Source: Promethearchaeota archaeon (GTDB lineage Archaea; Asgardarchaeota; Odinarchaeia; Odinarchaeales; JBHLKK01). Taken from it: a stretch of DNA of 5,061 bases. The notes under the pieces are model-generated. The model had not been told where the DNA came from and ran no database searches. It saw only the letters and a program-made list of their open reading frames with translations. The stretch spans positions 1 through 5,061 of the forward strand of contig JBHLPL010000122.1 of assembly GCA_048939465.1 (NCBI GenBank), written 5' to 3'. Positions 1-4,872 of this stretch are shown here, in pieces. The position numbers and the translations under genes were made by a program. How positions within the stretch are numbered: the stretch's first letter is position 1; each line of letters opens with the position of its first letter.

Positions 1-286
1 TTAATCTACTGAACGCCAAAGTGATCTGTTCACCACCCTTTTCGTCTATGGCCAGAAGCGCGTTGACAATCCTTTTTATGGTTCGAGTACCTGGTGACTT
101 ACGCCGGCCGCTTTCATAATCACTTATAACAGAAGGGGAAACACCAAAGAAGTCAGCCAAGGCTATTTGAGGAATATGGAACAACTCCCTCCATTTTCGG
201 ATAGTCTTGTAGGGCTTGCTTGAGAGAGCTATTTCTCCCGCTATCCGCCTAGCAAGGCGTTCTTTGGTAGAACGCGGTATGTTCAT
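1..286 (-). CDS. XRE/Cro-type helix-turn-helix transcriptional regulator (archaeal COG1709-like), 3'-truncated by the window edge
   Basis: Manual translation from ATG at 286-284 gives MNIPRSTKERLARRIAGEIALSSKPYKTIRKWRELFHIPQIALADFFGVSPSVISDYESGRRKSPGTRTIKRIVNALLAIDEKGGEQITLAFSRL..., open to position 1. An in-frame TGA two codons upstream fixes the start. IAGEI and the HTH stretch VSPSVISDYESGRRKSPG are typical of this archaeal family. Not in the supplied ORF track. Confidence 0.88.
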   Translation of the reverse strand, partial: MNIPRSTKERLARRIAGEIALSSKPYKTIRKWRELFHIPQIALADFFGVSPSVISDYESGRRKSPGTRTIKRIVNALLAIDEKGGEQITLAFSRL

Positions 287-323: not shown

Positions 324-379
324 ACATTAGAAGCAGGACGAAGATGATTCATGGTGTATAAGTCCATATGCCGATAGAG

Positions 380-387
380 TTAAAAAC
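380..387 (+). promoter_or_regulatory. Putative TATA box of the tRNA-Pro gene
   Basis: TTAAAAAC preceded by purine-rich GATAGAG, 38 nt upstream of the tRNA 5' end, which implies a leader of roughly 12-15 nt. Confidence 0.5.
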
Positions 388-449
388 AAGGTTTTTGTTG
401 CTATAGTATGACTCGACTAGCTCGTGGGCGGGTGGTCTAGCTTGGCTAT

Positions 450-467
450 AGGTTAAGAACCGGCCAA
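450..467 (+). other. tRNA intron 1 (18 nt), position 22/23 in the D arm
   Basis: Central helix GGCU(444-447)/GGCC(462-465), bulges AUA(448-450) and AAG(466-468), inner helix GGUU/AACC. Cutting after the second nucleotide of each bulge restores D-stem strand UGAU. The outer helix is only about 1 bp, so the BHB is relaxed. Confidence 0.88.
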
Positions 468-490
468 GATTCCGGTTTCGGGAACCGGAG

Positions 491-518
491 AAACACTACG
501 CACCGTAGTGTTTCGGAT
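491..518 (+). other. tRNA intron 2 (28 nt), position 45/46 in the variable loop
   Basis: Central helix CCGG(485-488)/UCGG(513-516), bulges AGA(489-491) and AUG(517-519), 9-bp inner helix AACACUACG/CGUAGUGUU. Splicing restores the variable loop AGGUC. Confidence 0.88.
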
Positions 519-532
519 GTCATGGGTTCGAA

Positions 533-560
533 TCCTGAGACAGTTCGTATAGGGCGAAAA
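533..560 (+). other. tRNA intron 3 (28 nt), position 59/60 in the T loop
   Basis: Strict BHB: the outer helix is the T stem AUGGG(522-526)/CCCAU(562-566), central helix UUCG(527-530)/CGAA(555-558), bulges AAU(531-533) and AAU(559-561), inner helix CCU/GGG. Splicing restores UUCGAAU. Confidence 0.9.
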
Positions 561-586
561 TCCCATCCCGCCCACATCAACCATTT

Positions 587-1960
587 TCAGGCCGTGGATG
601 ATTTGTTGATTATTCCTCTTGCCGCAATAATTCCCGTTGCAGCAGCCGTTACAAGGCCCCTGGACAAACCTACGCCGTCCCCAGCCACGAACAAGTTTTC
701 AGTGGTCGTTTCTAGATCCGGATTCGTGTAAAGTCGAAGAGCAGAGAATTTTATTTCTGGAGCATATAACAGCGTTGAGGAACTAGCTACACCAGGCACG
801 ACCGAGTCCAGCTTGTCCAAACCTTCTATAATATCCGTCAGGATACGGTGTGGCAAAGCCATGGCAATATCGCCGGGTGTTACAGACTTTAACGTAGGTC
901 TTACATTACTTCTGGAGATCCTATCCCATGTAGATCTATTTCCGTGTCTGAGATCACCGAGGCGTTGAAGTAGAGGCTTTTTGCCCCCCAGTATGGATAT
1001 TTGGGAGGCGATCGAGCGCGCATAAGCGCTTGTATCTTCTAGGGGTTCAGTCAGAGCTATCCTTACTAAGAAGGCAAAATTACTGTTTTCTGAGGATTTT
1101 CCTACCATTGCATGTCCGTTGACCCCGCAGAAATCATCATATACTTCCGCTACAACAAATCCTTGGTGGTTAACACAGAATGTCCTAAGGAAGTCATCGT
1201 ATGTCTCCGTATAAATACGGAATTTTGGGTCTCGGGCGATTTGTACTATAGGATCAAGTATTACGGCGGGAACCTCAACTCTAACTCCCACATCGATGGG
1301 CTCGTGTCTTGCAGGGATGCCTAGTCTTTCTGCTTCCTTTGCTATCCAGTCTGCCCCGATTCGCCCCGGAGCAGCAATTATATATTTGGCCTTTATCTTG
1401 GTTCCGCCTTTGAGTGTCAATTCACCAGTTTCAATTCGGGTTACTTCTTTTTTCAAAAGAAATTTGACGCCTTTGTTTTCAAGGTAGCTCTTGAAGTTCA
1501 AGACTACCTTAGGAGCGTTGTCAGTTCCAATGTGCCTCTGGGGGATAGGGACAAATTCAATGCCGGCTGCAGCAGCCTTCCTCGAGAGGTTTTCTACATC
1601 CTCAGCATTCGGAGAATAGATCTTCTTTGGGGCTCCAAATGAGACAAAAACCTTGTCTACGTATTTGATAAGTCTCTCAGCGTCCGTTTGATTGCCCACC
1701 AATGATGTTAAATCCCCCCCAATATCAGGTCTGAGATTTAGCAAGCCACTCGACAGAGTCCCGGCACCACCGACTCCACTCATCACGTGACACGGATTAC
1801 ACTTTGTACATAGCGAGAAAGTCGTTATAGGACATTTACGCTTATCTACATCAGACCCTTTATCTACGACCAGTACTTTCATTTTTGTATTATTCAGCAG
1901 TTCATAAGCAGCAAAAAGACCAGCGGGTCCCGCCCCAATTATTACTACATCTGCGTCCAA
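587..1960 (-). CDS. FAD-dependent oxidoreductase/dehydrogenase (COG2509-like), 457 aa, TTG start
   Basis: N-terminal Rossmann motif VVIIGAGPAGLFAA, a Cys cluster C-x7-C-x2-C-x2-C, GVGGAG, a second dinucleotide-binding segment IIAAPGRIG, and the C-terminal FAD motif LFVAGDGVG. GGAGG lies 7 nt upstream of the TTG. Confidence 0.9.
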   Translation of the reverse strand: MDADVVIIGAGPAGLFAAYELLNNTKMKVLVVDKGSDVDKRKCPITTFSLCTKCNPCHVMSGVGGAGTLSSGLLNLRPDIGGDLTSLVGNQTDAERLIKYVDKVFVSFGAPKKIYSPNAEDVENLSRKAAAAGIEFVPIPQRHIGTDNAPKVVLNFKSYLENKGVKFLLKKEVTRIETGELTLKGGTKIKAKYIIAAPGRIGADWIAKEAERLGIPARHEPIDVGVRVEVPAVILDPIVQIARDPKFRIYTETYDDFLRTFCVNHQGFVVAEVYDDFCGVNGHAMVGKSSENSNFAFLVRIALTEPLEDTSAYARSIASQISILGGKKPLLQRLGDLRHGNRSTWDRISRSNVRPTLKSVTPGDIAMALPHRILTDIIEGLDKLDSVVPGVASSSTLLYAPEIKFSALRLYTNPDLETTTENLFVAGDGVGLSRGLVTAAATGIIAARGIINKSSTA

Positions 1961-2592: not shown

Positions 2593-3552
2593 CTATCTCC
2601 TAACAGGTGAAGGAGAAAAAGAATGAGTAGAATTAAGCTCAGATCTCAGTTCACCTATCGTGGCAATTCGTTCAGCGATTAGGTTGTATTTGTGCAAACT
2701 CTCTTCATTGACGCATCGTACACCGACTAGTGTTTTGCTGGGCAGTTTAGGATGTGCGTCTACCACTCTTCGGAGGATTTCTCGAACAACATCCTCCAGA
2801 AGGCGTGAATTACTGTAAGCATCCAGGATCAGTTTTACTTCATCAGGTCTCTTCAAAATAGAGAACGTTGGTGCGCTTACAGACTCCTCCGCAATCTGAA
2901 TGAGACTTTCTAGATCAACGCGATGCTTGCGGAACGTCTCAATGCGGATATTTACAAGGCATCGTTGAGTATGCGTCAACATGGGAACCAATGAGACCAC
3001 TTTTGAAGATGTCTTCTCGGAGAATTCTAATCTTTTGATCAGCTCCTCTTGGGCATGCTCAGACACAAGCTCTTTTAGACAAGGGCAAATAGTCATTCCA
3101 ACTATTTCTATGCCTATGAAGCGACGAATGCGTATTCTGTTCTGGGCTCTTCTGCCGATTGCCTTGGCGTAGATTTTGCAGTACTCATCGGATATGGAGC
3201 TGCTTGCAGGAGTCTCTCGGACTATGCTATAGTCACTTTTCATCCTGATTTCTGCTTTTGAAGCGTATTCATGTTTCTTCAGCACTTTTTTTGCGATTTT
3301 TGCACAAAAATCTTCCAAGAATCTAATCGGTAGTTGTTTTACCGTGTCAACTACCTCTCGGACGCTCTCCGCACTCCGCGAAATGTGTACTCCCTTCCTG
3401 GTGGAGGGGAGATCCACATAAATGCTAACTTCAGGAAACAATATGTTTATACCATCTTTTCTCAGAGTCTTGATGGATATCTTTAGAGACTCAATACCTA
3501 CGCGAGACACTTTCAATGAAATATCGGGTGTGGTATCGTGAAGATCGCGCAT
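2593..3552 (-). CDS. mptA: GTP cyclohydrolase, MptA (type IV)/FolE2 family, about 319 aa
   Basis: Family motifs: D..P....SRVGI, KGVHISR, MTICPC, THTQR, ILKRPDE, LEDVVRE, ESLH. The start was moved from the ORF-track 3615 to ATG 3552 because the family N-terminus begins there and the extra 21 codons lie over AT-rich promoter DNA. Confidence 0.88.
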   Translation of the reverse strand: MRDLHDTTPDISLKVSRVGIESLKISIKTLRKDGINILFPEVSIYVDLPSTRKGVHISRSAESVREVVDTVKQLPIRFLEDFCAKIAKKVLKKHEYASKAEIRMKSDYSIVRETPASSSISDEYCKIYAKAIGRRAQNRIRIRRFIGIEIVGMTICPCLKELVSEHAQEELIKRLEFSEKTSSKVVSLVPMLTHTQRCLVNIRIETFRKHRVDLESLIQIAEESVSAPTFSILKRPDEVKLILDAYSNSRLLEDVVREILRRVVDAHPKLPSKTLVGVRCVNEESLHKYNLIAERIATIGELRSELNSTHSFSPSPVRR

Positions 3553-3578
3553 GCTGGTTTGCCACCAAATTGTCTTGT

Positions 3579-3606
3579 GATAAAAGGAAGTTAAAGAGCT
3601 TAAAAG
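3579..3606. promoter_or_regulatory. Back-to-back TATA boxes for mptA (minus) and the small hypothetical gene (plus)
   Basis: Minus-strand CTTTTATC (3586-3579) lies about 27 nt before ATG 3552. Plus-strand CTTAAAAG (3599-3606) lies 36 nt before the GGAGG at 3643. Confidence 0.45.
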
Positions 3607-3652
3607 CATTCGCAAAATAAGAGTTATCTAGGAAAATTCCTTGGAGGGTATA

Positions 3653-3957: not shown

Positions 3958-4497
3958 ATGCCTGAGTCTAAAAAGATAGGTTCTGCAATCCTGTACGGAT
4001 ACCATACTGGGGAGTGTGACCCCAAAAAATGCACAGCACTCAAACTCAATCGCCACAAACTCATAAAAATCTTTAGACATCTAAGAGATTTGCCAAGAGG
4101 AGCGGTTATTTTAAATCCTTTCTCAGAAGTAGCTTTCTCTCCCCAAGATAAAGAAAGCTGTATAGAGCAGGGGATAGTGGCTATCGACTGCTCGTGGGCC
4201 AAGGCCGACGAGATACTAAGAATGAGATTAGGAGGGGTAAATCGTTGCCTTCCATACCTAATAGCAGCAAATCCAACAAACTACGGTCAGCCATCAAAGC
4301 TAAGCACCGTTGAGGCCCTGGCCGCTTCACTCTTCATCATTGGATTCAAAGATCAGGCTGAAAGAGTGCTATCAATTTTCAAGTGGGGAACCAATTTTTT
4401 GACGTTAAACCAAGAATTACTGGAAGCCTACGCAGAAGCGGGAAATAGCCAAGAAGTAGTAGGCATTCAGAAGGAGTTCATGGAAATCAATAGATAG
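3958..4497 (+). CDS. tsr3: SSU rRNA aminocarboxypropyltransferase Tsr3 (DUF367 family), 179 aa
   Basis: Signature motifs ECDPKKCTALKL, LNPFS, AIDCSW, RCLPYLIAANPTNYG..KLSTVEALAA, FKWG..FL.LN.ELLEAY. GGAGG at 3946-3950 lies 7 nt before the ATG. Confidence 0.95.
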   Translation: MPESKKIGSAILYGYHTGECDPKKCTALKLNRHKLIKIFRHLRDLPRGAVILNPFSEVAFSPQDKESCIEQGIVAIDCSWAKADEILRMRLGGVNRCLPYLIAANPTNYGQPSKLSTVEALAASLFIIGFKDQAERVLSIFKWGTNFLTLNQELLEAYAEAGNSQEVVGIQKEFMEINR

Positions 4498-4872
4498 AGT
4501 TAGGTGAGGAGAGTAGCCCCCCTTCTGTTACGGAAACATCGTCACCAATGTTTCTTTTGCGGCATTCAACTTAGCGCCCTACCCGCTGTCCTTAGTCAGG
4601 CCCTTCATCGACAGCCTATTTGGGCTTTCTCCACGGCGTTGGGCCGTTTCAATGTTTCCATACACATTCTCAACGGGTTACCTGGTCTCGTCGCCAAGAC
4701 TTTTCTCGAGGCAAGAACCTCTCAACCGAATCACAGTCATTTATGCATGGACATTCCGTTTCTGATCCCAGAGCAGGACTCAAATCCTGTGGCTTTCGCC
4801 ACGCCGTTGCCTGAGCGGAGGGGGGAACTTCCTCAGTGAAACACCGGTAGCCGCTTTTCCTCTCCTAACTCT
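4496..4872 (-). ncRNA. rnpB: RNase P RNA, archaeal type A, about 377 nt
   Basis: P4 strands GAGGAAGUUCCCCCC (4834-4820) and AACAGAAGGGGGGCUAC (4529-4513). P1 is 14 bp with one A.A mismatch (4858-4872/4496-4510). P2 GCGGC/GCCGC; P3 CGGUG-UUU-CACUG; P5 CUCC/GGAG; P6 UCAGGC/GCCUGA; P7 ACGGCG/CGCCGU; P8 UGGC-GAAA-GCCA; P9 CAGGAU/GUCCUG. The conserved loops AUCAGAAA and UUGAAACG flank P12. P15 GCCC/GGGC has GGU in L15; P16 GCUGUC/GACAGC; 9-bp P19 with a GUGA loop; no P18. Confidence 0.95.

Follow-up and report, generated by a model that had tools for sequence, protein, structure and literature searches.

Can a tRNA gene of which half is intron be a working gene and, if so, where are its exons joined, and does it represent a new kind of interrupted tRNA gene? 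This question is raised by an archaeal locus for which a preliminary description had proposed a tRNA-Pro(CGG) gene carrying three introns. The window analysed here is the whole of a 5,061-nt contig (C76) of G000, a metagenome-assembled genome of 1.96 Mb in 152 contigs that is 91% complete. Its host lineage belongs to the Asgard archaea and is placed in the same GTDB order as Odinarchaeum, but in a different family, which bears out the early suggestion of a lineage other than the Thermoproteales. The order holds seven species representatives, three of them in the host genus (G000, G001 and G002) and four Odinarchaeum species in a second family.

Gene structure and mature tRNA

When the three proposed introns are removed, the four exons of 24, 23, 14 and 14 nt (Table 1) join into a 75-nt cloverleaf that ARAGORN calls tRNA-Pro(CGG), as originally proposed. 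The introns (18 + 28 + 28 nt) account for 74 of the 149 nt of the gene, so that the claim of a gene half made of intron is numerically exact. They lie at Sprinzl sites 22/23, 45/46 and 59/60, and thus at the non-canonical sites in the D arm, variable loop and T loop that had been described. In the spliced product the exons meet at GCUAU/GAUUC, GGAG/GUCAU and UUCGAA/UCCCA. The anticodon loop, UUCGGGA (477-483), is free of introns and the whole anticodon arm is uninterrupted, in agreement with the stated lack of an intron at 37/38.

The spliced tRNA has a 7-bp acceptor stem (GGGCGGG/CCCGCCC), a D stem formed by G10-U25, U11-A24 and C12-G23 with a mismatched U13-U22, a 5-nt variable loop (AGGUC) and the T arm AUGGG-UUCGAAU-CCCAU. 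The bases for tertiary pairing are complete (U8-A14, G15-C48, G18/G19-U55/C56 and U54-A58), and G37, A73 and G1-C72 are present as well. Overall, the restored cloverleaf keeps U8, A14, G18, G19, A21, U33, G37, G53, U54, U55, C56, A58 and C61.

The unspliced gene gives no ARAGORN match, with intron mode either on or off, and the Rfam tRNA covariance model likewise finds nothing there, even with the limit relaxed to E ≤ 10. The concern that standard annotation could miss the gene was therefore justified, and because both tools are blind to it, a decoder of CCG codons would be absent from an automatic annotation of this genome. An independent Logan assembly (run SRR34261218) contains the 149-nt gene without a single difference. 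Taking these features together with the comparative data below, we consider it very probable that 426-574 is a real, functional and single-copy tRNA-Pro(CGG) gene with three EndA-spliced introns, where the splicing itself is what we infer from the sequence.

Table 1. Coordinates of the tRNA-Pro(CGG) gene, its parts and its neighbours in the window; in the bulges, a slash marks the predicted cut
Feature	Position	Strand	Description
tRNA-Pro(CGG) gene	426-574	+	tRNA positions 1-73, CCA not encoded; called by ARAGORN on the spliced product; orthologues in five related genomes
Exon 1	426-449	+	Acceptor 5′ strand, U8, G9, D stem 5′ strand, D loop, U22
Intron 1	450-467	+	18 nt, site 22/23, relaxed HBh′; central helix GGCU 444-447 / GGCC 462-465; inner helix 451-454/458-461 (4 bp), outer helix 1 bp; bulges 448-450 AU/A and 466-468 AA/G
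Exon 2	468-490	+	tRNA positions 23-45; anticodon arm CCGGU-UUCGGGA-ACCGG; invariant in all six orthologues
Intron 2	491-518	+	28 nt, site 45/46, relaxed HBh′; central helix CCGG 485-488 / UCGG 513-516; inner helix 492-500/504-512 (9 bp), outer helix 1 bp; bulges 489-491 AG/A and 517-519 AU/G
Exon 3	519-532	+	tRNA positions 46-59: variable loop GUC, T stem 5′ strand, T loop UUCGAA; identical in G002
Intron 3	533-560	+	28 nt, site 59/60, strict hBHBh′; central helix UUCG 527-530 / CGAA 555-558; inner helix 534-536/552-554 (3 bp), outer helix = T stem 522-526/562-566 (5 bp); bulges 531-533 and 559-561, both AA/U
Exon 4	561-574	+	U60, T stem 3′ strand, acceptor 3′ strand, discriminator A73; identical in G002
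A/T-rich upstream blocks	379-409	+	GAGUUAAAAA at 379-388 and CUAUAGUAU at 401-409; conserved
Short T run	584-587	+	10 nt 3′ of the gene; overlaps the stop codon of the convergent oxidoreductase
HTH_3 regulator	2-286	-	Cut by the contig end; 245 aa in Logan contig L020
FAD-dependent oxidoreductase	587-1960		Tail-to-tail with the tRNA gene
GTP cyclohydrolase type I, FolE2/MptA family	2593-3615	-	PF02649
Tsr3-like ribosome biogenesis protein	3958-4497	+	PF04034 and an RLI-type Fe-S motif
Archaeal RNase P RNA	4502-4866	-	Rfam RF00373, 178.6 bits, full length

Splice motifs

The bulge-helix-bulge (BHB) motifs were read in the canonical 37/38 register, with the four bases preceding one bulge paired to the four preceding the other (H_a = p-5..p-2, H_b = q-5..q-2), and the predicted cuts were placed after the second base of each 3-nt bulge. 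In this register all three introns have a central helix of 4 bp, with G-U pairs in those of introns 1 and 2, which is the geometry that the preliminary description had reported for each junction. Introns 1 and 2 are of the relaxed HBh′ type, since their outer helices are a single base pair and their inner helices 4 and 9 bp, respectively. The central helix of intron 1 borrows D-loop bases 18-20a, and that of intron 2 borrows the 3′ strand of the anticodon stem (bases 40-43); the precursor is therefore expected not to be in cloverleaf form while these two introns are cut. Intron 3 mirrors the hBHBh′ geometry of the canonical 37/38 intron in the T arm: the 5-bp stem serves as outer helix, loop bases 1-4 form part of the central helix and the cut falls after base 6 of a 7-nt loop. 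Unlike a canonical intron, it lies within the T loop; this gene's anticodon loop carries none.

Because chance alone produces many BHB-like candidates (34 in 200 nt at the threshold used), the motif by itself is weak evidence, and the case for the gene rests on the cloverleaf together with the comparison of just six related sequences. Among the 401 combinations of BHB candidates within 400-600, the proposed triple ties for the top score (23); a tied top variant differs at intron 2 alone (491/517) and gives a 77-nt product. The proposed triple is preferred over this variant because the Odinarchaeum gene, which lacks intron 2, reads AG/GUC at this site. The combination of BHB candidates with ARAGORN gave a tRNA from none of 30 shuffled sequences. 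Such a solver ranks the proposed solution joint first under strict settings and puts wrong solutions first under relaxed settings, even for 426-574. The BHB conformers of introns 1 and 2 did not emerge from thermodynamic folding, and the conformer with all BHB motifs formed, at about -43.5 kcal/mol, lies some 26 kcal/mol above the predicted minimum of -69.2 kcal/mol. BHB conformers above the folding minimum are usual for bulges that are stabilised by protein. With the conformer this far above the minimum, folding energy gives no support and was counted neither way.

Conservation and evolution of the introns

The tRNA-Pro(CGG) gene lies tail-to-tail with an orthologue of the same FAD-dependent oxidoreductase in G002 and in all four Odinarchaeum genomes, with protein identities to the window of 92% in G002 and 71-73% in Odinarchaeum. 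We regard the loci as orthologous because this neighbour is kept, and a six-sequence alignment was made from the window, G002 and the four Odinarchaeum species (L003-L006). G002 carries the same three introns at the same sites; its exons show no differences in 75 positions, compared with 15 differences in the 74 intron positions (Fisher p = 1.2e-5), which is the pattern expected if the partition is right and the gene is under selection. Exon 1 is identical in G002 and retains 22 of its 24 bases in the Odinarchaeum genes.

Introns 1 and 3 are present in all six orthologues, intron 1 with a variable sequence and one compensatory pair in its inner helix. Intron 2 is absent from the four Odinarchaeum orthologues, which align with an exact 28-nt gap between AG and GUC, so that the boundaries of this intron are fixed without use of the motif. 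The Odinarchaeum gene thus resembles that of the window in its syntenic locus, near-identical exons and 22/23 and 59/60 introns of equal motif geometry, but has no 45/46 intron, has shorter introns at the other two sites (16 nt at 22/23 and 19 nt at 59/60) and encodes the CCA that the window's gene lacks.

Across the six-sequence alignment, 97.3% of BHB-helix cells are paired, as opposed to 31-58% when the partners are slid by one to three columns. Five two-sided compensatory pairs were found. Two belong to the inner helix of intron 2, where they distinguish the window from G002; the inner helix of intron 1 and the T stem contribute a pair each, and the fifth lies in the central helix of intron 3, where exon base 57 and intron base 555 form G-C in the host genus and A-U in Odinarchaeum. 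The central helix of intron 2 in G002 carries a G-G mismatch. Since the sequences compared are few and one of them supplied the structure, we treat this covariation as supporting the motifs and not as statistical proof of them.

The 22/23 and 59/60 introns look old in tRNA-Pro(CGG), since they are common to Odinarchaeum and to a third Asgard family (f12), where the gene in G016 has introns at 22/23, 37/38 and 59/60 and shares the upstream HTH-domain gene. The confinement of the 45/46 intron to the host genus among syntenic orthologues suggests a later gain. A phylum-wide pattern search of 400 genomes for a 45/46 intron in tRNA-Pro(CGG), with a very strict pattern, returned real matches only in G000 and G002; two further matches were discarded as they lie inside coding sequence.

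G001 was left out of this inference of gain and loss because its contig is non-syntenic and of low protein identity. Although G001 is labelled as belonging to the same genus, the 4.7-kb contig that carries its tRNA-Pro(CGG) gene encodes proteins only some 45-55% identical to those of G000, and the flanking oxidoreductase was not found in this genome, which is 78% complete. A mis-binned contig or a very broad genus would account for this. In the G001 gene (C98; L007 1420-1585) no insert divides the 22/23 and 59/60 sites, which gives boundaries for these two introns that do not depend on the motif, and we noted introns at 16/17, 25/26 and 45/46 there, each with a 4-bp central helix. A separate observation concerns a tRNA gene of another Asgard family (G014, L008 950-1102), which has a near-identical 5′ end, a 14-nt insert at 22/23 with the same GGCU central helix and a long insert in the anticodon region; it can be read either as Val(CAC) or as Pro(UGG), according to the splicing assumed.

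Alternative readings of the locus

The gene could be real with some of its junctions shifted, a reading to which we attach very little weight. Intron 1 would then be 449-466, placing A22 opposite U13 in a Watson-Crick pair, or intron 2 would be 492-517, giving a 7-nt variable loop; either variant still yields an ARAGORN-valid tRNA-Pro(CGG), and removal of 492-517 even equals the proposed triple in naive BHB score. The attraction of the A22 pair is lessened by the U13-U22 mismatches of three other G000 tRNA genes with uninterrupted D arms, and a shift of intron 1 by one base would break its 4-bp central helix. In three Odinarchaeum species A22 is impossible, the base before GAUU being G there; this base is counted as intronic because it varies between A and G among the orthologues, while U449 is invariant. 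For intron 2, the AG/GUC of Odinarchaeum species without the intron argues against removal of 492-517. The junction GCUAU/GAUUC, with U22, had been the less obvious choice of the preliminary description and is upheld by the central helix and by the variation among orthologues.

With the proposed junctions retained, the locus might still be a decaying, non-functional copy of a tRNA-Pro gene with insertions that are never spliced, as the blindness of two standard finders and the relaxed form of two of the three motifs could indicate. We consider this extremely unlikely: the exons are 100% identical to those of G002 although the flanking protein is only 92% identical and the introns differ at 20% of sites, the syntenic position is kept across two families, and compensatory changes have preserved the splice-motif helices. 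No second or intron-less Pro(CGG) copy was detected by blastn in the 91% complete genome, so that neither exon decay nor an intact copy elsewhere, the two marks of a tRNA pseudogene, is seen. A different question is whether the introns of a functional gene are recent arrivals of a transposing family, as proposed for the Thermoproteales, and not old vertical inserts. Repeated use of the 45/46 site, which is also occupied in two tRNA-Val genes of G000, would be in keeping with mobility; the three 45/46 introns, on the other hand, have in common only the handful of bases that pairing to the anticodon stem imposes, and the 22/23 and 59/60 introns occupy the same sites across families. As had been claimed, no resemblance is seen among the three introns (local alignment scores of 4-5), and their matches to the rest of the genome are only chance ones of 11-12 nt; similar introns in different tRNA genes of one genome, the hallmark of the Thermoproteales case, are thus not observed here. 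Recent transposition therefore seems a very improbable origin.

Splicing machinery and a proposed pathway

The genome contains two EndA-family genes. The first, on C90, encodes an alpha-type protein of 204 aa that is most like the catalytic alpha subunits of crenarchaeal heterotetramers, its best PDB match being that of A. pernix (3p1z_B, E = 1.5e-44); the Tyr/His/Lys triad is kept, and the alignment runs without gaps over the Crenarchaea-specific loop, with K59 aligned to the loop residue Lys44. The loop lysine K44 confers broad substrate specificity on EndA (PMC5829648). In the second, a paralogue of 191 aa on C139, Val replaces the catalytic His, which fits a structural, beta-like subunit. 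This pair agrees with the (alpha-beta)2 EndA with an L1 loop that has been reported throughout the Asgard archaea (Kaneta et al. 2018, PMC5829648). Two RtcB homologues are also present. The match on C31 (2961-5708, minus strand) is broken in two, one part covering profile positions 1-57 and the other 45-426, with about 1.4 kb between them in a single 973-aa open frame, and looks like an intein-containing RtcB; the second, on C78, is uninterrupted. By homology, the host thus appears to encode an endonuclease predicted to act on relaxed motifs and an RtcB-type ligase.

A pathway can be proposed from these components. The gene would be transcribed into a precursor of about 150 nt or more, in which EndA, as an (alpha-beta)2 enzyme with two subunits, would recognise three independent BHB motifs, the loop lysine of its catalytic subunit allowing for the relaxed ones. 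EndA would cut after the second base of each 3-nt bulge and release introns of 18, 28 and 28 nt, RtcB would join the four exons, and RNase P, whose RNA gene lies in the same window, would trim the 5′ end. CCA would be added enzymatically since it is not encoded. That splicing takes place, and in which order, is what we infer from these elements. The two relaxed motifs, which require an unfolded D loop and anticodon stem, offer a substrate set for examining the specificity of Asgard EndA in vitro.

An intron-rich set of tRNA genes

The genome had been suspected of an intron-rich tRNA set, and it has one. Among 24 Rfam tRNA hits that pass the cut-off, 19 cover at least 87 nt; ARAGORN reports an intron in 19 of its 25 calls; and a tRNA-Met gene on C88 (5638-5824, plus strand) has four introns, as shown by its five exons (5638-5669, 5686-5692, 5723-5730, 5762-5775 and 5808-5824), which join into a perfect elongator tRNA-Met(CAU). 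Genes with two introns were found for Val, Pro, Thr and Lys tRNAs. The tRNA-Val(CAC) gene (C77:13258-13376, plus strand) and the tRNA-Val(UAC) gene (C121:4734-4854, plus strand) have two inserts each, one of them at 45/46. An ends-first census counted about 45 tRNA-like loci in the genome, most of 100-190 nt; since the ranking of the solver is unreliable, this uncurated count is given as a rough picture only.

Several details of these genes may be recorded. ARAGORN miscalls both Val genes as tRNA-Leu(CAA) with one intron, and the 5′ 15-16 nt of both are the same as those of the Pro(CGG) gene. Contig C88 has tRNA genes for Arg, Thr, Thr and Pro as well. The last of these (7503-7637, plus strand) is a second proline tRNA gene with two inserts and an anticodon that is either GGG or UGG: the only strict BHB of the anticodon arm would leave GGG, A37 and a 6-bp stem, and a textbook UUUGGGA loop (UGG, G37) requires a 30-nt excision that lacks the 4-bp central helix.

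Relation to other interrupted tRNA genes

Earlier literature gave three introns as the maximum for an archaeal tRNA gene, found mainly in the Thermoproteales (PMC4033280), and the preliminary description had followed this view in calling triple-intron tRNAs rare. The view has since been overtaken, as Asgard genes with multiple introns have been published since 2018. Multi-intron tRNA genes together with a broad-specificity (alpha-beta)2 EndA were reported from Asgard archaea, Odinarchaeota LCB_4 among them (Kaneta et al. 2018, PMC5829648). In three complete Asgard genomes, introns occur in 92-95% of tRNA genes, more than half of which have several (Valentin-Alvarado et al. 2024, PMC11291895), and certain Asgard families average 2.2 intervening sequences with up to five per gene, 30% of these intervening sequences, mostly those in the D arm, being missed by tRNAscan-SE (2026 preprint 10.64898/2026.10.13.758758). 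The sites 22/23, 45/46 and 59/60 each appear on the published list of archaeal non-canonical positions (PMC4090602); a literature search on the numeric intron positions returned irrelevant matches only.

The present genome shares the features of the published Asgard cases: an Asgard host, at least two introns per gene, many of them non-canonical, and much of the tRNA set affected. The likeness extends to the introns, several per gene, short, bounded by BHB motifs and mostly non-canonical (D arm, variable region and T arm), to the (alpha-beta)2 EndA with its L1/CSL loop, and to genes that standard annotators partly miss. The published work differs in its focus on Atabeyarchaeia, Freyrarchaeaceae and Jordiarchaeaceae, and the main text of the preprint does not deal with Odinarchaeia; the host here belongs to a sister family of Odinarchaeaceae, and the three introns of the window gene are fewer than the published maximum of five. 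Since tRNA genes with many interruptions have been published from Asgard archaea before, the window gene is another example and not a new kind. Against the text of the papers compared, its only additions are the host family and the exact triple of positions.

The Thermoproteales offer a second comparison, here taken from PMC4033280 and PMC4090602, which summarise Sugahara et al. 2008 and Fujishima et al. 2010. According to these accounts, their genes also have up to three introns, drawn from the same list of sites, with relaxed HBh′ motifs and a heterotetrameric EndA with a specific loop. They belong to another phylum, and similar introns recur there across tRNAs, which has been read as transposition; no such reuse is seen in G000.

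A more far-reaching reading is that the sister family of Odinarchaeaceae is a further, undescribed hot spot of EndA-type introns outside the classes of the preprint, in which the 45/46 intron is a datable lineage-specific gain. It would draw on genes for tRNAs that hold three, four or more introns. We put this forward tentatively, as a possibility with the balance somewhat against it. If it were true, the need for an unfolded anticodon stem in the removal of the 45/46 intron would call for a refolding step or an ordered splicing pathway. The six-genome comparison provides intron boundaries that are independent of the motif and a dated presence/absence pattern for the 45/46 intron, and is useful for understanding how archaeal tRNA introns arrive.

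Flanking elements and neighbouring genes

The RNase P RNA gene in the window has an extra 25-nt hairpin near its 3′ end (about 4528-4552) relative to the model. This hairpin was considered as a BHB intron and rejected, as no motif fits its boundaries. Nearer to the tRNA gene, the short T run at its 3′ side is a possible archaeal terminator. The blocks at its 5′ side could possibly serve as a BRE/TATA promoter; within them, GTTAAA..AA is shared without change by the window, G002 and two Odinarchaeum species.
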